From Candidatus Giovannonibacteria bacterium (GTDB lineage Bacteria; Patescibacteriota; Minisyncoccia; UBA11713; 2-01-FULL-45-33), in the NCBI GenBank assembly GCA_016176295.1, contig JACOXN010000003.1, positions 28,212 to 92,211 of the forward strand: DNA of 64,000 bases. Direction: 5' to 3'. This document shows positions 1 through 40,835 of this stretch, piece after piece. Below the pieces are notes generated by a model that saw only the letters and a program-made list of their open reading frames with translations, searched no databases and had not been told where the DNA came from. Position 1 is the first letter of the stretch, and every line of letters starts with the position of its first letter. Position numbers and translations under genes: made by a program.

Positions 1-941
1 TTATTTCCAAAGGCGCCAAAATAAAAGTCATCTTTTTCGGCTCCACCGAAGAAACCAAATGGTTCGCGGACTATGTGAATCAAAACCCTTCTTTGGGATA
101 CAAAATAGAAGTTGTAACCGCCGAGGAAGATATCCGAAATGCTCTCAAGAAAAAACCGGCTGACTTGATCGTAGTCGAACCCAACGCTCTCGAAAATAAG
201 GAATTGGTAAAAATGTTCTACGAGGTGCTCCCTATGGGAATTTCAATAATGAATTTCGCCGAGTTCCACGAGCATCTAACCGGCAAAGTCCCCACTTCGC
301 TCATCACCGAGTCATGGTTCCTGGAAAATTTGATGGAATTGAACAAACAATCATTCGAAACAATGAAGCGTGGGATAGATATCATAGGCGGAGCCGTGAT
401 ACTGGCCATCACTTTTCTCTTTTATCCGATAGTCGGACTTTTCATAATTTTGGATTCAGAGGGCCCCGTTCTTTTCAGACAAGCTCGCGCGGGAAAGAAC
501 GGAAAAGCATTCAGCCTGGTAAAATTCCGCTCGATGGTAAAAGGCGCCGAAGAAATCAGCGGACTTAAAGAATCATCGGGCGGCAAAAAAGACGCAAGGA
601 TCACGAGAGTCGGCAAAATCCTCCGGAAAATTTATATCGACGAACTGCCGCAGGTGATAAACATAATCAAAGGAGAAATGTCTTTCGTAGGTCCCCGGCC
701 GGAGCGCCCGGAGTTCGTCAAAGTTTTAAAAACAAAAGTTCCTTATTACGACATGCGCCTTTTGGTGCGCCCCGGCATCACCGGCTGGGCGCAGATAAGC
801 ATGAAGAACGATGCTTCCGTGGAAGACGCACCGGAAAAGCTGCAATACGACCTCTATTACATCAAAAACCGCACCATCACCATGGATCTCGCCATAATGC
901 TAAAAACCCTCACCACGATGCTCGGGAGAAGCGGCAAGTAA
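1..941 (+). CDS. Polyprenyl-phosphate glycosyl-1-phosphate transferase (bacterial sugar transferase family, WbaP/CpsE-like); 5' end lies outside the window
   Basis: The frame is open from base 3 (ISKGAKIKVIFFGSTEE...), so the GTG at 75 in the ORF track is probably internal. One TM segment (IIGGAVILAITFLFYPIVGLFIIL) is followed by a catalytic domain with KFRSM, DELPQ, FVGPRPERPEF and RPGITGWAQI motifs. Confidence 0.85.
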   Translation, partial: ISKGAKIKVIFFGSTEETKWFADYVNQNPSLGYKIEVVTAEEDIRNALKKKPADLIVVEPNALENKELVKMFYEVLPMGISIMNFAEFHEHLTGKVPTSLITESWFLENLMELNKQSFETMKRGIDIIGGAVILAITFLFYPIVGLFIILDSEGPVLFRQARAGKNGKAFSLVKFRSMVKGAEEISGLKESSGGKKDARITRVGKILRKIYIDELPQVINIIKGEMSFVGPRPERPEFVKVLKTKVPYYDMRLLVRPGITGWAQISMKNDASVEDAPEKLQYDLYYIKNRTITMDLAIMLKTLTTMLGRSGK

Positions 942-955
942 ACGTGATTCTGTTC

Positions 956-1095
956 AGGAAAACTAAAGTGTTTCTGAACGGATTTTGCGCCATTTTCAGC
1001 AAGGTCTCCGCAGCAGCGGAGTGAAAATGTGCGCAACCCTCGGAGCCCCGCGCTGGCGGGGCGAGAATGAGTGAAAAAACACTTAAGTTTTTCCT
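956..1095. repeat. Structured repeat element, copy A (nested helices P0-P4; candidate structured RNA or REP/MITE-like element)
   Basis: Pairings read directly from the sequence. P0 956-964/1086-1095; P1 966-973/1077-1084; P2 985-998/1022-1036. P3 hairpin CTCCGC-AGCA-GCGGAG at 1006-1021; P4 hairpin GCCCCGC-GCTG-GCGGGGC at 1045-1062. Homologous to 39624-39759 in the same orientation. GC-rich relative to its surroundings. Lies between two convergent genes and touches the stop codon of the 1094-4789 gene. Confidence 0.8.
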
Positions 1096-4000
1096 AAAAC
1101 AAATTCGGGGGCGAGCTGATGGCTATATTGTTTTCAAAAGTTAAATTCAAAACGTTTAAAGTCGAGTTGGCGGTAAGGATGGCGAGAGAGTTGCTGGAGA
1201 ATAATATACCATCAAGCGATGCGTTTGAATTTAGTATCATAAGACCTGTCCCCGGCCCGCCTCCGGGAGCGCTTGTGTGTTCGCTGAATTCAAAATTGGC
1301 AAGCGAAATGTTTGAGCCTCCGTCTATTCTCATACCGATGTTATAATTTTTCTCAATTTTCCCCTGGTTCAAATTTAGTGTCCCCCCGTTCACGCTAAAC
1401 CCCGCGCACTGATTGTTGCAGGCTGCCGGGCCTCCCCCGCCGTGGCGCAAAGTAAATCCGGCGCCGTAAGCCGCACTCCCGGAATTCATAACGATGCCTT
1501 TCCATTGGCCGGGAGCCGAATCACCCAACGAAGAAAACAAAATATCGTCCGCCGAAACTCCTTTCATTTCCAAAGTTCCATTGATTTCCAACGAACTCGA
1601 ATCACCAGCACCCAATATCTTTGTTCCCGATTCTATAACCAAGCCGAAATTCTGCGGCACGGAAAGCGTGGTCCTTGAGGGAATAATGTAAGGCAACGGA
1701 TTGGCCGAAAGCGTGGTTGTGCCGGAAGAAGAAGTGAGAGATCCGGAAAGCGAAATACCATTTATTCCATTGCTGGAACCGCCGTTTCCGGAAAAAATTC
1801 CAATCCTGCCATTTGACGTAACGGCATCGGAAATATTTCCGATAAATTCGTTATCCGAAACCGAAGCATCCGAACTTTGCACATTGAGCCCGTAATAATT
1901 CCCGGAAAAAATGTTACGAGAAATATTCGGCGTTCCTCCGCCTATTGTCAGGCCGCTCTGATATATTGTAGAGTTTTCGGAAAACAAATTGTCTGAAATA
2001 TCGGCATCTGATCCGGATACTTTTAGGCCGTCGCTCCAGGATTTTTCAAAAATGGAATGAGTAATCTCCGCCGGAGAACTTTCGACAGCTACCATGGAAC
2101 GAAAGTTATTCGGCGTATTGCCGTACCATCTTCCACCGTAACGAAATCTGGAGTGAGATATTACATTTTGTGATGCAGGGCCGACCAACAATACATTCTT
2201 CCAGGCACCCGGAGACGGCTCCGTGGTGGTGGCATCGCCATTCGTATCTCCGCCGAATTCATCGTCAAAGATGCTGGTGAAAACTATCGGTTTCTCTCCG
2301 GTTCCTTCCGCTTTTAAAGTGCCTTCGATGTTGAGCAGCGCATCGCTGCCGAATTTGATAACAACTCCCGGCTCGATATTTAACACGACGCTAGGTTTGA
2401 CTGTAAAATTTATATTTCTGGGGATAATGTACGGGCTTCTTCCGAAGATTAAAGTTTTGTCGCTTTCAAGAACCGAACCCGGAGCGATGATGTAATTCAG
2501 GCTATTCCGGTTTTTCGGAGTTGCCGATAAAAACAAACCATTTTTATCGTGCCCGCGCGTGACAACCGTGCTATCGGCGCTTCCCCAGTTGTACGGGTCC
2601 GAAGAAGAAATATCCGCATCCCTCCGTTCCATGCTGTATCCGCTTCCGAAGCTTGATCCGCCGCACCATCTGCCTTCGCAAAGAGGCACGCGGTCGATGG
2701 TTGTCGAACCCCGGCTTAAAATTAATACTTCTCCCGAATTTGAAAGTCCGGAACCCGCGGCTCCGCCAGCCGGCGGACCGCTGAAAGGTAAAATCAAATC
2801 AGCCGGAATGTCGCTTACGGTTTCATCGTTTGAACGCTCTATCAAAAAATATCCGTGAGCCGGTAAAACTCCGGAAAGCGGAAGGTAAGGCACGCCGTCC
2901 TCCGCTTTCAATACCCAGCCGCTAAGATCTATGGGCAGAGATGTGCGGTTATACAGTTCCATCCATTCGTCGGACGGGTCAGAGGGAGTTCCCATCCAGG
3001 CGACTTCGTTTATTACCACCGGGCTCGCCGAAACTTCAACGGTTTTGGAAAGAGGAGGGCTTTCGTTTCCGGTTGTGTCAACGGCTTTCGCGGAAAAAGA
3101 ATAAATTCTGTTGTCTTCGGCCGCAAAAACGGTCGAGGTGGCATGCGTATTTAAAAAATCAAAACCGCTGCAATAAAGTCCGCCGTTCATGCAAGAAATA
3201 TCATAGTACTCCAAGTCAGCTGTATCTGAATTCCATGCCAAAGTAAAAGATCCGGGATTTAAGAGGCATGATTCAAAAGATATGGAATCCGCACATTCGA
3301 GAATTGAGAAAGAAATATCGGGAGGAGTGACATCATTGGTCAACCCGGCAGGTTGACCAGGCGGGAAAACACTCGGTGTTTCAAGTGGTTCAACACCGAG
3401 TGTTGAGGAGCCAGGCAAATCGGAGGAGGGCGCGGCTTGCTCCAACGTCATCGTCGGAGTTCCTCCGCCAAATCCCGGCACGTACGGAATAGATGTTGGA
3501 ACCGGCGCTGGCGTTGGCACAATTTCATTGGATGTGAATTCTCCCAAAACTTCGCCTTCCGTACCTCCCCTCGCACACTCCCTGCCTGCCGGCAGGCAGT
3601 CTTCTAAAGGAGGAGAAATTGAATTGTTCTCGCCCGGCAGAGAAAAACTCGGTGCCGCTTCGGCAACAGTGTCGTTTCGCGGTAATGAGATTTGAAAAGC
3701 GCTCGCCGGAATTTCATCAATGAGCGGGGTCGGCTCCGCCTGCTCCGCCCCAAAAGTTCCGGCCACTGCCGAATATATTTTTTCCGACAATGGTATTCCC
3801 TTCGCCCATAATTCTTTGCTTTTCCTCTCCTTTTCCGCTTCCTCAAAAAATAATCTCATTACTCCCGCGCCGTGTAATACGGCCTGTTTGGAAAGATGTG
3901 ACCAGTAGTCGGTGAGGATTAGGTTATCAGGATCATCTAGAAAATAGTCTTTTTTCTCTGGACTTTGCCATTCAAATTTAGCTAATCGTGCAGCTAATAT

Positions 4001-4789
4001 AATATCATTGTTATACGCAAATATTACAGACTTTCCGTTACTTCTAATTATTTCAACCTCATTAGATATTTTTGGTTTAACATAATCAGTAAACAAAATC
4101 GTATCTTTACTAAAAAAATTACTATTTGAATAACGAGACAAAGAATCAAAATAATCTTGAAGCGTACCAAACGCCAGTGGTTGTGCAGAATCGCCATACA
4201 AAGATTTTGCTAACCCCTCAATTTCAGTGGGCGTAAATTTTTTAGTCCAATACTCGTAAGGGCTGCCGAAATCCAAAACCGGCGGATGAGGATCGTTCCT
4301 TGTGTGGTCCGGCACAGATGCGTCTTCCACTAAATGCAAAATATTTCCCAAAGCAATAAACCCGCGCTCCTTATCTGTCCAAACATAGTCGTGTACGGCC
4401 CTCTGCCAAGAATAATCGGTACGCGAGTCGAAATATCCCATAGAAACTGCCGCAAGTGAGCTGCCGCTAATGGCATACGACGGGTCATACAAAGACTGGC
4501 GAAAAGTGCTCTCCGCCCAAATTTTGGACGCAGGAAAACCCCAAAGGCCCCTGTCATAAACGGGGTCATAAAAATGATTCATCGGGCGTATGTTTTCGTC
4601 CTCGATAATACTCCCTATTTTAACCCATTCTTTCTCTTCCGTAGTCAATGAAAGTTCCGGATAATACAAATTAAACAGATCGACTATTTCATCGGTTAAC
4701 GCCGGATGGGTTGTTTGATCGCTATAAGCAAAAGAAAACAGCGGGGAAAAGAAGGACAATAAAAGCAAAGTGGTGACTCGTATTTTCAT
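1094..4789 (-). CDS. Giant secreted surface protein: signal peptide, Zn-phospholipase-C-like domain, Pro/Ser-rich linker, lamin-tail domain (LTD), right-handed beta-helix repeats
   Basis: 1231-aa ORF. Signal-like N-terminus MKIRVTTLLLLSFFSPLFSFAYS. HLVEDASVPDHTRNDPH His/Asp cluster resembling Zn-dependent PLC. LTD signature VVINEVAWMGTPSDPSDEWMELYN..GWVLK..GYFLIERS..LSNSGEVLILS. The C-terminal ~450 aa are periodic G/S/N-rich repeats (ISxNxF, NGI) typical of parallel beta-helix proteins. Confidence 0.8.
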   Translation of the reverse strand: MKIRVTTLLLLSFFSPLFSFAYSDQTTHPALTDEIVDLFNLYYPELSLTTEEKEWVKIGSIIEDENIRPMNHFYDPVYDRGLWGFPASKIWAESTFRQSLYDPSYAISGSSLAAVSMGYFDSRTDYSWQRAVHDYVWTDKERGFIALGNILHLVEDASVPDHTRNDPHPPVLDFGSPYEYWTKKFTPTEIEGLAKSLYGDSAQPLAFGTLQDYFDSLSRYSNSNFFSKDTILFTDYVKPKISNEVEIIRSNGKSVIFAYNNDIILAARLAKFEWQSPEKKDYFLDDPDNLILTDYWSHLSKQAVLHGAGVMRLFFEEAEKERKSKELWAKGIPLSEKIYSAVAGTFGAEQAEPTPLIDEIPASAFQISLPRNDTVAEAAPSFSLPGENNSISPPLEDCLPAGRECARGGTEGEVLGEFTSNEIVPTPAPVPTSIPYVPGFGGGTPTMTLEQAAPSSDLPGSSTLGVEPLETPSVFPPGQPAGLTNDVTPPDISFSILECADSISFESCLLNPGSFTLAWNSDTADLEYYDISCMNGGLYCSGFDFLNTHATSTVFAAEDNRIYSFSAKAVDTTGNESPPLSKTVEVSASPVVINEVAWMGTPSDPSDEWMELYNRTSLPIDLSGWVLKAEDGVPYLPLSGVLPAHGYFLIERSNDETVSDIPADLILPFSGPPAGGAAGSGLSNSGEVLILSRGSTTIDRVPLCEGRWCGGSSFGSGYSMERRDADISSSDPYNWGSADSTVVTRGHDKNGLFLSATPKNRNSLNYIIAPGSVLESDKTLIFGRSPYIIPRNINFTVKPSVVLNIEPGVVIKFGSDALLNIEGTLKAEGTGEKPIVFTSIFDDEFGGDTNGDATTTEPSPGAWKNVLLVGPASQNVISHSRFRYGGRWYGNTPNNFRSMVAVESSPAEITHSIFEKSWSDGLKVSGSDADISDNLFSENSTIYQSGLTIGGGTPNISRNIFSGNYYGLNVQSSDASVSDNEFIGNISDAVTSNGRIGIFSGNGGSSNGINGISLSGSLTSSSGTTTLSANPLPYIIPSRTTLSVPQNFGLVIESGTKILGAGDSSSLEINGTLEMKGVSADDILFSSLGDSAPGQWKGIVMNSGSAAYGAGFTLRHGGGGPAACNNQCAGFSVNGGTLNLNQGKIEKNYNIGMRIDGGSNISLANFEFSEHTSAPGGGPGTGLMILNSNASLDGILFSSNSLAILTANSTLNVLNLTFENNIAISSPPNLF

Positions 4790-5512: not shown

Positions 5513-6052
5513 TCAAAGACCGAAAAACGACCTTAACTCCCCATCCTCCGGTATGGCAGCCGAATCTATTAAGATCAGTTCTTTGCCAAATATAAAGTCG
5601 CTCCAGAGATCAAAAAAATCTTCCGGCAGGCGGTAAGGATAAGCCCAAACGCTTTTTTGAAGCTGGTAAAATCCGAAACCGGTCAGTTCCTTGCGGAAAA
5701 AATCCCTTTTGCTCCTTACCTTCTCCGGTATATCAAAAATCAGCAATCGCCATTTGCCGTCCCACTTTTTAGATTTGGATAAATCCAACTTCAACTTTAT
5801 ACGCAACGCCAAAGCTTCCCCCGCTTCCGAAAGGCAATACTCTACTTTTCCTTTCCGGCGCTCTCCGATAATAAGCCCCTTCTTTTCCAGCCTGTTCAGA
5901 GTATTTCTGAACGATTGAGGCTTAGCGTGAACGCAAAAAGCATGGAAATAAGGATGCGGCCAAAAAGATTCGACAAAAGCTTTGTTAAGAGCGTCTAATA
6001 TCAAAACCGCAGAATCCGAAAGCGTTGGCTCATAAATTATCTTTTTTCGCAT
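5513..6052 (-). CDS. PaaX-family-like transcriptional regulator (N-terminal wHTH plus Cas2-like ferredoxin-fold domain)
   Basis: WDGKWRLLIFDIPEKVRSKRDFFRKELTGFGFYQLQKSVWAYPY is the characteristic PaaX/Cas2-fold segment. The start is set at MRKKIIYEPT (6052) because the longer track ORF (to 6121) overlaps the ArsR gene. Confidence 0.65.
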   Translation of the reverse strand: MRKKIIYEPTLSDSAVLILDALNKAFVESFWPHPYFHAFCVHAKPQSFRNTLNRLEKKGLIIGERRKGKVEYCLSEAGEALALRIKLKLDLSKSKKWDGKWRLLIFDIPEKVRSKRDFFRKELTGFGFYQLQKSVWAYPYRLPEDFFDLWSDFIFGKELILIDSAAIPEDGELRSFFGL

Positions 6053-6071
6053 AAAATAAGATTTAATTATT

Positions 6072-38962: not shown

Positions 38963-39613
38963 CTATTTTTTCAGAAGAAAAATGTAACCCAGAGGATATT
39001 TTTCTTTAAGCTGCGGCCTTAGCTTCAGTAAAACTCGGTCAAGTAAATAATATATGGGAAAAACCGCGAGCTTTAAAACGCCGGGCAGAGGAAACGAAAC
39101 CATAATATTGTAGCTTACCGCGCACGGCCCCAAACCGACTTCTTTGACGACTACATTCTTAAAACCGGCTTCCGCAAATATCTTCTTCAATGACTCCTTT
39201 GTATACCTGAAATAGTCATGCGGGTCCGCGTGATAGCTCATCATGAAAGGCACAAAACCCAAAACCTCGTTACCGGATTTAACGACCCTTTTTGCCTCGC
39301 CTATCAAAAACCTGTAATTATAAATATGTTCCAGAATGTTGAACATGAGCACCTGATCAACACTTTCATCCGCATACGGCAGCGGGTCTTTTTCAAGGTC
39401 TACGGTCTTGCCGATTGCATGCAGGCTTTTGAAATCAATATTTATAATCTCCGTACGGGGCTCTTTTTTTAAGAATTGAAAATAACTGGGGTTTACACCC
39501 CCGCCCACGTCAAGTACCTTTCCTTTGACCGTATAATTGGCAAGCTCCAGGTTCATCATTGTCCGGAGCAGACTTTTTTTTCTCCAAATCCCTTTAGCTA
39601 TTTTAAAAAACAT
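38963..39613 (-). CDS. Class I SAM-dependent methyltransferase
   Basis: VLDVGGGVNP SAM motif and VDQVLMFNILEHI. Start moved to the ATG at 39613 (MFFKIAKG...) because the upstream 51 codons of the track ORF merely translate repeat copy B. Confidence 0.7.
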   Translation of the reverse strand: MFFKIAKGIWRKKSLLRTMMNLELANYTVKGKVLDVGGGVNPSYFQFLKKEPRTEIINIDFKSLHAIGKTVDLEKDPLPYADESVDQVLMFNILEHIYNYRFLIGEAKRVVKSGNEVLGFVPFMMSYHADPHDYFRYTKESLKKIFAEAGFKNVVVKEVGLGPCAVSYNIMVSFPLPGVLKLAVFPIYYLLDRVLLKLRPQLKEKYPLGYIFLLKK

Positions 39614-39623
39614 GATTTTTAGA

Positions 39624-39759
39624 GACGGACGAATGAGTCTCTGAACGGGTTTTGCTGCCTTTTTGGCATGGTCTCCGCGAAGCGGAGCAAAAAGGTCAGC
39701 AACCCTCGGAGGCCGCCGCTGGGCGGCCGAGAATGAGTGAAGAGACTCAATCGTCCGTC
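39624..39759. repeat. Structured repeat element, copy B
   Basis: P0 39624-39632/39751-39759; P1 39635-39642/39741-39748; P2 39652-39665/39688-39702. P3 CTCCGC-GAA-GCGGAG at 39673-39687; P4 GGCCGCC-GCTG-GGCGGCC at 39711-39728. Intercistronic, between the GT4 stop (39747) and the methyltransferase start (39613). Confidence 0.8.
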
Positions 39760-40835
39760 GATTCAAATAAATTAATAAACTCTCTTACTCCTTTCTCTTT
39801 GCCAAATCCTTTGGAAAATTCCAGCGCTTCAATCCTGGCTTTATTATACGCTATTTCATCCGAAAGCAGAGACTTGATGCGGCCTTGGAAACATTCGATA
39901 TCACCGACTTCGCACAAATAATTTTCCAAAGATTTCGGCACGAGTTCCCGAATGCCGCCAATATTTGAAGCCACAAATGGCACACCCGACGCCATCGCTT
40001 CCAAAATAACGCGCGGCGAGCCTTCCTCGCGCGAAGGCATCAGAAAAACACGGGCGTCTTTAAAATATCTTACCACTTCAGCATTTGCTACGGGACCCAA
40101 AAGTTTTACTTTTCCCGTCAGACCGGAATTTTCAATTTCCAATTTACAATTTTCGAATTCCGGCCCGGCACCGATAACCACAAATTCCACGTCGTCATTT
40201 TTAAAAGCTTCAGCTATTTTGGGCACAAAATCAACTCCTTTTCTTTTTGACAAATGATGAACGAAGAGCACGATTTTCGGGGATAATTTCTTGTTGGCAT
40301 CTGGCTTGAATCTCTCCGTGTCTATCCAATTCGAAACCACGCGGTATTCTTTTACACCGTAACGCGCAACATACTCTTTGGCGAGCGACTCCGGGCCGGT
40401 GACCAAAATTGAGTTACGTAAAATAAACCGGAAAAGTTTTTCTTTGAGCCAATTTTGCTTAAAGAGCCACGGCATTCCGCGGTTCCAGTAAAAAACCTTC
40501 ACTTGGCGGCTAAGCCGCCAAGTGGTTAATAAGACTGCCAAAACGCCATAATAAGAATAGTGGACATAAAAACCCCTGAATCCCGAAGATAGAAGTTTGA
40601 AACACATCCAAAGCATCTCCAAAAAACGCAACGGTGGAAATTTGTATTTTTGAACATAAATCTGCGCCTCCCCTAAATCAATTTTTTGTCCGAAACTTAG
40701 TTTCGGACATTTTTCCACGATAACAAAAATATCCGCGGTCTTTGCCGCTTCGCGGATAAGCAGGTAATTATAAAAAAAATGGGTATCGGTACCCTCCTCG
40801 TAAATAGGTAAAATATAGGCAACTTTTGGTTTCAT
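39747..40835 (-). CDS. Glycosyltransferase family 4
   Basis: LFVHHLSKRKGVDF, VIGAGPE, FLMPSREEGSPRVILEAMASGVPFVASNIGGIRE (E-x7-E region). Confidence 0.85.
   Translation of the reverse strand: MKPKVAYILPIYEEGTDTHFFYNYLLIREAAKTADIFVIVEKCPKLSFGQKIDLGEAQIYVQKYKFPPLRFLEMLWMCFKLLSSGFRGFYVHYSYYGVLAVLLTTWRLSRQVKVFYWNRGMPWLFKQNWLKEKLFRFILRNSILVTGPESLAKEYVARYGVKEYRVVSNWIDTERFKPDANKKLSPKIVLFVHHLSKRKGVDFVPKIAEAFKNDDVEFVVIGAGPEFENCKLEIENSGLTGKVKLLGPVANAEVVRYFKDARVFLMPSREEGSPRVILEAMASGVPFVASNIGGIRELVPKSLENYLCEVGDIECFQGRIKSLLSDEIAYNKARIEALEFSKGFGKEKGVREFINLFESTDD

Follow-up and report, generated by a model that had tools for sequence, protein, structure and literature searches.

One important question raised by the window (the whole 64,000-nucleotide stretch of Candidatus Giovannonibacteria DNA analysed here) is whether two foldback elements on its + strand, at 956..1095 (W1) and 39624..39759 (W2), are copies of a structured RNA or of a dispersed palindromic repeat. 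W1 is set between convergent genes. The 5' arm of its closing stem, AGGAAAACTAAAGTGTTTCT (956..975, + strand; earlier divided into P0 and P1), is paired with the 3' arm at 1075..1095, and this stem can be extended by ~10 imperfect pairs outside 956/1095. The junction strand J1/2 (GAACGGATT, 976..984) comes next; its GAAC was placed by RNAalifold opposite the GTGA at 1071-1074, as G.A, A.G, A-U and C-G. The P2 arm together with P3 spans 985..1036 and consists of P2a (TTGCGC/GCGCAA), P2b (CATTTTCA/TGAAAATG), the internal loop GCAAGGT and P3 (CTCCGC-AGCA-GCGGAG). It is followed by J2/4 (CCCTCGGA, 1037..1044), the P4 hairpin GCCCCGC-GCTG-GCGGGGC (1045..1062), whose closing G-C pair covaries to A-U in relatives, and J4/1 (GAGAATGAGTGA, 1063..1074). 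J2/4, which is the same in W2, and J4/1 served as search anchors.

W2 occupies the gap between two minus-strand genes, and its parts are likewise given on the + strand. They are the 5' arm of the closing stem, GACGGACGAATGAGTCTCT (39624..39642), which is the partner of the 3' arm at 39741..39759; J1/2, GAACGGGTT (39643..39651); the P2 arm and P3 (39652..39702, with TTGCTG/CAGCAA, CCTTTTTG/CAAAAAGG, the internal loop GCATGGT and CTCCGC-GAA-GCGGAG); J2/4, CCCTCGGA (39703..39710); the P4 hairpin GGCCGCC-GCTG-GGCGGCC (39711..39728); and J4/1, GAGAATGAGTGA (39729..39740). A covariance model made from relatives matched W1 at 954-1095 (42.4 bits, E = 9.5e-9) and W2 at 39621-39761 (54.6 bits, E = 6.4e-12). 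These were the only sites on both strands of the 64-kb window, even at E <= 10, and no third copy was found in the window by mismatch-tolerant pattern searches.

The consensus of the two copies obtained with RNAalifold contains 48 predicted pairs; two-sided changes were present in 15 of them, one showed a one-sided change (G-U/A-U) and none was broken. An earlier note on this DNA had counted at least ten compensatory changes without any disruption, which was a conservative figure. The coordinates and helices it gave for both copies hold, and the conserved multi-helix structure with massive covariation is borne out. The blocks CTGAACGG, CCCTCGGA, GCTG and GAGAATGAGTGA and the P3 stem CTCCGC/GCGGAG are unchanged between W1 and W2. 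Fold stability on the + strand was well separated from that of shuffled sequences (z = -6.4 and -8.6, with 0 of 200 shuffles equally stable for each copy), and the reverse complement of the copies folds strongly too.

Further copies, ~115 in number, were recovered by exact-pattern scanning from 32 genome assemblies and from metagenomes. The genome scan returned 71 loci, 64 of which are true copies from 32 assemblies of at least six phyla, and the metagenome scan returned 90 further stretches, with 80 listed loci (L080-L159) being analysed. The hosts include Patescibacteria, Desulfobacterota, Nitrospirota, Nitrospinota, Planctomycetota and Latescibacterota. When the covariance model was run on ~1.05 Mb it added just two copies to the exact-pattern matches, a gain so small that the ascertainment bias on junction conservation was not removed. 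Rfam 15 gave no match over the whole window at the gathering threshold, its only match in 15 loci from relatives was a tRNA, and permissive scans of W1, W2, L009 and L019 yielded merely weak miRNA-type hairpin matches. The scans of the window and of the tested relatives agree with the previous proposal that the element belongs to no known Rfam-type family. No matches were obtained in the viral contigs searched or among the plasmids searched (blastn, distant mode), and the literature on the conserved strings and on palindromic or in-frame elements in Patescibacteria and the other host phyla contained nothing relevant that we could find. The foldback family is apparently uncatalogued in the catalogues and literature searched.

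The layout of the family is constant and comprises a closing stem of ~20 bp and free sequence, a three-way junction and two variable hairpin arms. The unit extends from the base of the closing stem to the matching base and measures ~100-170 nt, the closing stem having a median of 20 bp (interquartile range 18-22). Over 37 sequences 94% of the cells are paired, versus 53% in shuffles and 39-49% in slid controls, and two-sided changes were seen in 25 of 25 pairs. The junction can be written as YUGAACGG / CCCUCGGA / GAGAAUGAGUGA, with tandem G·A pairs joining GAAC to GUGA and P1 running on through this motif. In relatives the tandem G.A is swapped for Watson-Crick pairs (UCAC/GUGA, GACC/GGUC and GAAC/GUUC), and these three independent replacements support the GAAC/GUGA pairing. 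K-turn and k-junction models built by hand were rejected, since the junction did not match the standard geometry and the tandem G.A lies inside a continuous helix. The P2 and P4 arms vary freely and tolerate nested insertions, including other palindromes nested in P2, and in the minimal members, L012 and L118, the core is reduced to ~60-70 nt. P4 loops are mostly NGGA (purine fraction 0.61). In many members outside the Patescibacteria the apical loops of P4, and often those of P2, are CAUGGAUG, CACGGAUG or ACAGGAC, and 2-3 GGA loops per element are present in members from Desulfobacterota, Nitrospirota and Nitrospinota. Copies from the window (Patescibacteria) and from Planctomycetota lack GGA loops, and have GCUG, AGCA or GAA instead.

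Junction conservation is lower than it appears, because 20 of the ~28 seemingly invariant bases were imposed by the search pattern and J1/2, which was not imposed, is variable (TGAGCGG, TGAAGGG, TCACGG, TAAACGG and TGAACAG). Moreover, copies in miaA that were recovered without the motif carry 1-4 junction changes, in both orientations. The hairpin arms of these miaA copies are kept even where the junction decays, so that stem covariation alone cannot tell selection on RNA from maintenance of a palindrome at the DNA level.

Regarding the genes beside the window copies, a bacterial sugar transferase gene (75..941, + strand; Pfam PF02397, E = 4e-61) has its stop codon 15 nt upstream of W1, and the gene for a 1231-aa lamin-tail-domain protein (1094..4789, - strand) touches the 3' arm of W1 with its stop codon, the final two bases of the arm lying within this TAG (1094-1096). 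The ATG of a methyltransferase gene (38963..39613, - strand) is located 10 nt past the 5' arm of W2. On the other side, the 3' end of a GT4 glycosyltransferase gene (39747..40835, - strand; 100% identity to a Candidatus Giovannonibacteria protein) overlaps the 3' arm of W2, which on the minus strand encodes the last codons (..TDD) and the stop TGA (39747-39749). As observed earlier, both copies lie at the stop codon of a minus-strand gene, and neither is followed by a T-run. No T-run was present 3' of W1, W2 or their relatives on either strand, so an intrinsic terminator, which combines a GC-rich hairpin with a U-run, was dropped. The GT4 protein of the window ends in ...NLFESTDD* and its homologues in ...NLFK*, and the relatives of this gene directly adjoin the next gene without a hairpin downstream. 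This argues against the outer stem being native target sequence or a pre-existing hairpin; a further argument is provided by L020 and L051, which have common arms at unrelated loci. The GT4 locus of the window is also carried by the metagenome runs L078 and L079.

Wobble pairs indicate which strand folds. In 75 independent loci 95 G:T and 16 A:C were counted, and a separate count gave 39 and 11, an excess which indicates that the + strand of the window is the one selected to fold. The + strand is likewise favoured by its purine-rich junction and by the NGGA loops. In co-directional contexts the fold strand is antisense ('--') in 28 cases and sense ('++') in 4 (p = 2e-5), and the element follows the stop codon of the gene that it faces by 0-36 nt at ~20 loci of the first set. 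In four syntenic pairs the element showed 7/534 differences versus 445/7446 in the flanks (Fisher p = 3e-7), indicating that resident copies evolve ~4.5 times more slowly than their surroundings.

The family also behaves as a repeat. Copies of the same Nitrospinota genome have a ~225-bp unit in common, with conserved upstream flanks, and L020 and L051 are ~99% identical, arms included, with the similarity stopping at the hairpin base. Contig ends carry many copies, the element being a cause of contig breakage, and WGCX01 and CAYMFW01 are among the multi-copy genomes. Landing sites are beside stop codons or in frame within genes, in all kinds of gene context, and a second copy within one locus was seen only in L054 and L147. 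All-against-all clustering of the ORFs within 3 kb of the 71 loci retrieved only generic families (HD-GYP regulators, Ser/Thr kinases and DinB) and no linked partner protein. Since no target-site duplications were found (direct repeats are absent beside the Planctomycetota copies, whose arms differ completely), nor any transposase or empty/filled polymorphism, we infer mobility rather than demonstrate it. In miaA, in-frame copies occur in sense and antisense, with the reading frame kept both ways, and orientation differs in 6 of 14 cases among nearest MiaA relatives; the element flips in place between its inverted arms, repeatedly, over evolutionary time. Giovannonibacteria proteins contain many other in-frame palindromic inserts.

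It had been proposed that the compensatory changes reflect selection on RNA and not repeat behaviour. This contrast is not sustained for a dispersed multi-copy repeat that flips and resides in frame in ORFs. Membership of a known REP or MITE class, which had been named as a way in which the proposal could fail, is only half borne out: the behaviour is like that of REPs, Rickettsia palindromic elements (RPEs) and MITEs, but no known matching class was found. RPEs are reportedly dispersed palindromes of ~100-150 bp, located in frame in genes as well as between them, and transposase-less. The foldback family resembles them in these dispersed palindromic repeats, in its in-frame and intergenic insertion and in the lack of an associated transposase, but RPEs are known only from one genus and the foldback family is spread over at least six phyla and has a conserved three-way junction and arms of free sequence. 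MITEs are marked by target-site duplications and by terminal inverted repeats conserved among copies; here, the L020/L051 unit extends to the hairpin base and carries its arms along when it moves, and the wholly different arms of the Planctomycetota copies have no direct repeats at their flanks. Likewise, the element resembles an inverton in being a segment bounded by inverted repeats and found in both orientations at miaA among species, repeatedly, and differs from it in that its inverted repeats do not constitute a conserved recombinase site, an invertase was not seen and within-population switching gave no sign in a protein search with the L007 MiaA. That search (the L007 MiaA is identical to P0001 over the overlap) detected no near-identical flipped MiaA isoform, and active phase variation was set aside.

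The reading that we tentatively favour is that W1 and W2 are resident copies of a foldback element that is non-coding, widespread and horizontally scattered and carries a strand-specific RNA module. The payload would be the strand-specific + fold, most likely as RNA, as suggested by the G.U excess, the purine-rich junction of GA type and the NGGA loops of a protein-binding type. The folded RNA might act in cis, through cleavage, termination or protein capture. Such cis-activity would account for the almost constant antisense placement of the + strand relative to neighbours in untranslated co-directional contexts, and for the occurrence of both orientations in the translated miaA linker. The window copies would then be silent on the glycan-operon mRNAs and would fold only on transcripts opposing those genes. 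If + RNA is rarely made from antisense copies, their strong conservation needs another explanation, for which antisense transcription, gene conversion and a DNA-level role are candidates.

A more specific possibility, to which we give a rather low probability, is that the junction constitutes a new strand-specific RNA device (a self-cleaving or self-acting RNA, or a host-factor trap) mounted on the flipping foldback and insulating gene 3' ends. This device would act only on transcripts opposing the adjacent gene, where it would block antisense read-through, and would be harmless on sense mRNA or when translated. The family shares with hammerhead-type ribozymes a core of ~60-70 nt, conserved bases in a three-way junction, a GA-stem-GA arrangement, a variable closing stem and the lack of a consistent gene association. 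However, its junction strands measure 5, 8 and 8 nt (7, 3 and 1 nt in the hammerhead) and are unlike the CUGANGA ... GAAA ... UH core, and the ribozyme models gave no match even at E <= 10.

The folded + strand might alternatively be a single-stranded DNA site, that is, a substrate for a recombinase or HUH enzyme comparable to the attC bottom strand or an IS200/IS605 end, with copies persisting where the folded strand is rarely exposed; we consider this unlikely. The logic is attC-like: structure is kept with free stem sequence, the site immediately follows the stop codon of an upstream ORF to which the fold strand is antisense, the length is ~60-140 nt and the tip is variable and sometimes branched. 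In addition, the hairpin base is the exact limit of the mobile unit, and neither a promoter nor a terminator of RNA type is apparent. The resemblance goes no further than this logic, as the conserved part is the tip and not the base, the stem bases lack RYYYAAC/GTTRRRY core sites (R''/R'), and the outer arms of 52 copies show no AAC/GTT at a fixed position, so an integron attC site was rejected. Nor are there cassette arrays, a second copy being confined to the two loci mentioned above, or any recurrent neighbour family that could provide an integrase or transposase. The elaborate GA-rich three-way junction and the NGGA loops are typical of RNA, and the presence of both orientations at one locus, miaA, also speaks against this explanation.

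A further explanation is that the elements are selfish palindromic DNA, whose hairpins are maintained by templated (quasi-palindrome) correction and recent spread without RNA function, the conserved blocks being a product of ascertainment and of the youth of the copies. The paired arms of the miaA copies despite junction decay, the repeated in-place flipping, the commonness of other in-frame palindromic inserts in Giovannonibacteria proteins and the 20 junction bases forced by the search pattern are all consistent with it. Against this, orthologous resident copies change at a rate ~4.5 times lower than that of their flanks, W1 and W2 have CTGAACGG, CCCTCGGA, GAGAATGAGTGA, GCTG and the P3 stem in common in spite of 15 altered stem pairs, and neither the strand asymmetry nor the orientation bias is expected under symmetric DNA-level maintenance. 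We therefore regard this explanation as quite improbable.

The earlier note had placed the element in the 3'UTR or intercistronic RNA of minus-strand mRNAs, where it would act in cis, for example as the stabiliser or processing signal proposed for REP sequences. The position 0-36 nt past the stop codon of the faced gene, the conservation of resident copies and the strong folding of the reverse complement fit this model, but action in those transcripts is not supported, since the wobbles favour the + strand, which is antisense to them; on the mRNA strand they turn into A.C mismatches (95 vs 16), and the junction and loops become pyrimidine-rich. The element is found in all gene contexts and in both orientations in miaA, and a plain stabiliser needs no conserved junction sequence, all of which makes the model very doubtful. 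REPs are species-specific, 20-40 nt long and marked by a conserved 5' GTAG foot, and a RAYT transposase gene accompanies them. As in REPs and REPINs (BIMEs), intergenic multi-copy hairpins with compensatory stem changes lie just 3' of genes in the foldback family, but here conservation across phyla lies in the centre, and the stems are the least conserved part. Unlike the REP/REPIN-RAYT system, the foldback family spans several phyla, its copies have unrelated arms and no partner gene was seen at the 71 loci.

Equally doubtful is a family of trans-acting small RNAs whose arms would present protein-binding loops, for instance as a CsrA/Rsm-type sponge in Desulfobacterota, Nitrospirota and Nitrospinota. 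The apical loops CAUGGAUG, CACGGAUG and ACAGGAC are of the CANGGANG/AYGGAY type discussed for CsrA and TwoAYGGAY (PMC4333381), and the near-identical multi-copy units of Nitrospinota, with their conserved upstream flanks, would suit such RNAs. In TwoAYGGAY (RF01731) a poorly conserved external stem is combined with tandem G.A pairs and with a pair of hairpins bearing AYGGAY loops (PMC4333381), a loop type also present in many members of the foldback family outside the Patescibacteria. Nevertheless, the Rfam model of TwoAYGGAY hits none of the tested members even at E <= 10, the Rsm models gave no match either, and the junction is specific to the family. The several GGA loops expected of a CsrA/Rsm-binding small RNA are missing from the window copies (loops GCUG and AGCA/GAA) and from those of Planctomycetota, there is no conserved promoter or terminator, and the in-ORF copies and repeat behaviour are unlike a dedicated small RNA gene. 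Other candidates were discarded: a DGR TR/VR pair, because the differences between W1 and W2 are of all types and paired across stems and not adenine-specific; a retron ncRNA, which has a similarly variable closing stem, because no reverse transcriptase is nearby; and 5S rRNA or SRP Alu, the likeness being superficial and without a covariance-model match.

If the favoured reading of a foldback element with a strand-specific RNA module holds, W1 and W2 belong to a cross-phylum family of small structured elements unlisted in the catalogues and papers searched. Its combination of features would be unusual: a junction whose conservation extends over Patescibacteria, Desulfobacterota and Planctomycetota, a ruler-like closing stem of ~20 bp and free sequence, in-frame residence in both orientations in miaA, an essential tRNA-modification gene, and a folding strand that conflicts with the strand transcribed alongside its neighbours. 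The family offers a tractable test case for the spread of small palindromic elements without a partner gene, and the minimal cores of L012 and L118 have a length (60-70 nt) at which ribozyme activity and protein binding can be assayed directly. Its practical effects include fragmented metagenome assemblies, altered C-termini (as in the GT4 protein, with ...ESTDD for ...K) and swollen linkers in Patescibacteria proteins.

The two segments described in the earlier note, at 956–1095 (copy 1) and 39624–39759 (copy 2) on the window forward (+) strand, were confirmed in coordinates and structure; they align in the same orientation with 84% column identity, flanks included. RNAalifold on the pair gave 48 base pairs, 15 of which had changed on both sides with pairing kept and none of which was broken, in agreement with the at least ten compensatory and no disruptive changes counted before; the single one-sided change was G-U/A-U. 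The blocks CTGAACGG, CCCTCGGA, GCTG and GAGAATGAGTGA, reported as identical, are indeed unchanged between the copies, and so is the P3 stem at the tip of arm P2. The loops are GCUG and AGCA/GAA, and the internal loop GCAYGGU is conserved. Both copies are far more stable than their dinucleotide shuffles (z = -6.4 and -8.6). Searched with a covariance model made from relatives, the window gave exactly two matches, copies 1 and 2, and no third copy was found by mismatch-tolerant pattern searches of the window. The sequences just outside the copies are also alike, upstream (940–955, AAACGTGATTCTGTT, and 39608–39623, AAACATGATTTTTA) and downstream (1096–1107, AAAACAAATT, and 39760–39771, CAAATAAATT), suggesting that the mobile unit may extend about 15 nt past the hairpin at either end; at copy 2 the similar stretch includes the ATG with which the downstream methyltransferase gene begins.

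No known Rfam family had been recognised, and this was borne out by Rfam 15, which gave no match in the window or in 15 relatives' loci, and by permissive Rfam scans of four elements, likewise without match. Scanning of genomes, one per species, with the exact pattern CCCTCGGA-N(12-30)-GAGAATGAGTGA yielded 71 loci, 64 of which (32 assemblies) also carried the unforced upstream block and the closing stem. The hosts belong to the Desulfobacterota, Nitrospirota (including Thermodesulfovibrionia), Nitrospinota, Planctomycetota, Latescibacterota and Patescibacteria (Giovannonibacteria, Saccharibacteria), and the copy number reaches 8 in some genomes. In metagenomes this pattern reported 90 stretches; among the 80 listed loci analysed (L080–L159), about half duplicate genome hits and 26–31 are new members. 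No copy was found in viral contigs and plasmids, and literature searches returned no description of the family. The structure is thus real, and so is the family, which is large, matched no Rfam 15 model in these scans and is undescribed in the literature searched. Since 20 junction bases are fixed by the search pattern, the "invariance" of the junction is partly imposed, and the unforced J1/2 block varies; the sample thus probably understates the size of the family several-fold and overstates its uniformity. The covariance model recovered second copies that the exact pattern had missed in two loci, L054 (136–274 and 2005–2139) and L147 (12840–12980); those of L054 are separated by 1.9 kb and point the same way, and in the extra copy, which has ACCTCGGAG, P2 is disrupted.

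The same layout recurs in all members: a closing stem (P1) of free sequence, J1/2, P2, J2/4, P4, J4/1 and the return strand of the stem. J1/2 has the consensus YUGAACGGRUU, and the P4 hairpin lies between J2/4 (CCCUCGGA) and J4/1 (GAGAAUGAGUGA); the P2 arm is variable, often branched and accepts nested palindromes of up to ~190 nt. The median closing stem is 20 bp (interquartile range 18–22), and the core of the smallest members (L012, L118) is ~60–70 nt. In 37 sequences the 21 outer and 4 P4 pairs were 94% paired, against 53% in shuffles and 39–49% in slid controls, with both-side changes in every one of the 25 pairs. GAAC in J1/2 lies opposite GUGA in J4/1 (G.A, A.G, A-U, C-G), and the tandem G.A is replaced by Watson-Crick pairs in three independent lineages (UCAC/GUGA, GACC/GGUC, GAAC/GUUC), so that P1 extends into the junction. 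The G following GGA pairs with the C preceding GAGAAUG, with covariation to A-U. Outside the Patescibacteria, and with the exception of Planctomycetota, NGGA (typically CAUGGAUG) forms the P4 loop and often that of P2 as well. It seems unlikely that the junction represents a truly new RNA device. A G.U wobble at the fifth outer-stem pair from the junction (columns 18/111 of alignment A5) recurs in several unrelated subfamilies (S145_18, Nitrospinota, Bco_6) and may be functional. Nested palindromic units, with inserts of up to ~190 nt, occupy the P2 tip in L021, L030 and L058, suggesting that the P2 apex tolerates, or attracts, further hairpin insertions.

In four syntenic genome pairs, the element differed at 7 of 534 positions, against 445 of 7446 in the well-aligned flanks (Fisher p = 3e-7). 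With the register fixed by Watson-Crick pairs only, the outer stem of 75 independent loci contained 95 G:T and 16 A:C, and a separate tally across all helices gave 39 and 11. Cytosine deamination (non-template strand, leading strand) should skew the counts the other way, and we therefore ascribe the asymmetry to selection that favours folding of the window + strand. Where the flanking genes are co-directional, the + strand was antisense to both in 28 cases and sense in 4 (p = 2e-5), the element usually lying 0–36 nt from the stop codon of the facing gene; in the translated miaA linker the two orientations are about equally frequent. Constraint, strand asymmetry and orientation bias must be accounted for by every model. 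The element is not an ordinary cis-regulatory RNA. We tentatively favour, with somewhat less than even confidence, a dispersed foldback element whose conserved payload would be the + strand fold, most likely as RNA. Cis-activity of the folded RNA would be selected against on untranslated sense transcripts, and would be irrelevant where ribosomes unfold the structure or the complement alone is transcribed; we infer this activity, which might be cleavage, termination or protein capture. The main tension is the conservation of antisense-oriented copies, if these rarely make + RNA; it might be explained by antisense transcription (insulating gene 3' ends), by gene conversion or by a role at the level of DNA.

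Among known systems, Rickettsia RPEs and REP/REPIN are nearest to the element in behaviour, attC sites in positional logic, and the TwoAYGGAY motif in its loops and tandem GA; by the tests that define them, the element belongs to none of these families, and it is classed with the dispersed repeats of palindromic or structured type. A site of single-stranded-DNA recombination that follows attC-like logic is considered rather unlikely.

The family has the behaviour of a dispersed repeat. Nitrospinota copies at separate loci share a ~225-bp unit with extended arms, and Desulfobacteraceae S145_18 holds six identical copies, several at contig ends. L020 and L051 come from separate MAGs and their flanks are unrelated; their ~99% identity takes in the arms and ends at the hairpin base. 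Planctomycetota copies have a common core with an unrelated ~19-bp stem in each and showed no flanking direct repeats; no recurrent protein family was found among the element's neighbours. Purely selfish palindromic DNA, which would have to accommodate the low divergence and strand asymmetry, is considered improbable. In Desulfobacteraceae Bco_6 the copies (L001, L043, L047, L053, L059) are embedded in a larger ~260-bp repeat whose outer ends resemble classical terminal inverted repeats (…ATATGTTCC… / …GGAACGTTAATATGAGAAC), suggesting that a conventional MITE may have captured the family core. At L018 a different second foldback element (5885–6064; 27-nt arms, inner 16-bp hairpin, starting ...CCCTGACCGGAACGG) adjoins the family copy, and the motif GTTTCTTATAAAA occurs three times in the intergenic region that holds them.

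Copy 1 lies between convergent genes: a sugar transferase gene on the left, ending 15 nt upstream, and on the right the gene of a 1231-aa lamin-tail-domain protein (1094–4789, minus strand), whose stop codon touches the 3' arm. The lamin-tail domain is the sole Pfam match of this ORF, and its neighbourhood is one of glycan biosynthesis (sugar transferase, GT4 enzymes, methyltransferase). Copy 2 occupies the gap between a GT4 glycosyltransferase gene (39747–40835) and a methyltransferase gene, both on the minus strand. The GT4 protein is 100% identical to a Candidatus Giovannonibacteria protein, an identity that places the window in Patescibacteria. It ends in ...NLFESTDD* where homologues end in ...NLFK*, the added codons coming from the 3' arm of copy 2, and two relatives lack the hairpin, their orthologous gene abutting or overlapping the one that follows. 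Copy 2 thus appears to be a lineage-specific insertion that carried its own arms. The earlier note had assigned the copies to minus-strand 3'UTR or intercistronic RNA; in spite of the adjoining minus-strand stop codons this strand assignment is unsupported, the wobble asymmetry pointing to the + strand, and a minus-strand 3'UTR element has little probability. Equally little is given to an sRNA of the GGA-loop lineages that would act in trans as a protein sponge. The NGGA loops of these lineages (non-Patescibacteria except Planctomycetota) belong to the AYGGAY/CANGGANG class, which has been considered in connection with CsrA binding and the TwoAYGGAY motif (PMC4333381); the window copies lack them.

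In Giovannonibacteria miaA the element is in frame, within the linker that joins RAIEIA to WLGIKR. Orthologues gathered by protein homology, independently of the motif, keep the hairpin via compensatory changes, and their junction has drifted by 1–4 bases. Stems can stay paired even where the junction is no longer intact; hence stem covariation alone, from which selection on secondary structure had been read, does not prove RNA-level selection. In further miaA orthologues this element, with homologous arms, is reversed in orientation and likewise in frame. The orientations are interleaved on the MiaA tree, the nearest relative being oppositely oriented for 6 of the 14 element-bearing proteins, which shows that flipping of the element in place has occurred several times. 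When flipped in silico, it left the frame open in 5 of 9 genes. A protein search with the MiaA of locus L007 (identical to P0001 over the overlap) gave no near-identical flipped isoform, so no sign of programmed switching was seen at miaA. Several other families of in-frame palindromic inserts were observed at loop positions of Giovannonibacteria proteins (alignments A2, MiaA, and A4, homologues of the window GT4 protein; loci L072–L074), which suggests that such insertions are common in this lineage. Their peptide signatures are 'LAQRDG..RAI.Q..NMRV' and 'DFAGF...EESKIN', and a perfect mini-hairpin, CCCCTCTCCTTCGTAAGGAGAGGGG, encodes 'PLSFVRRG'.
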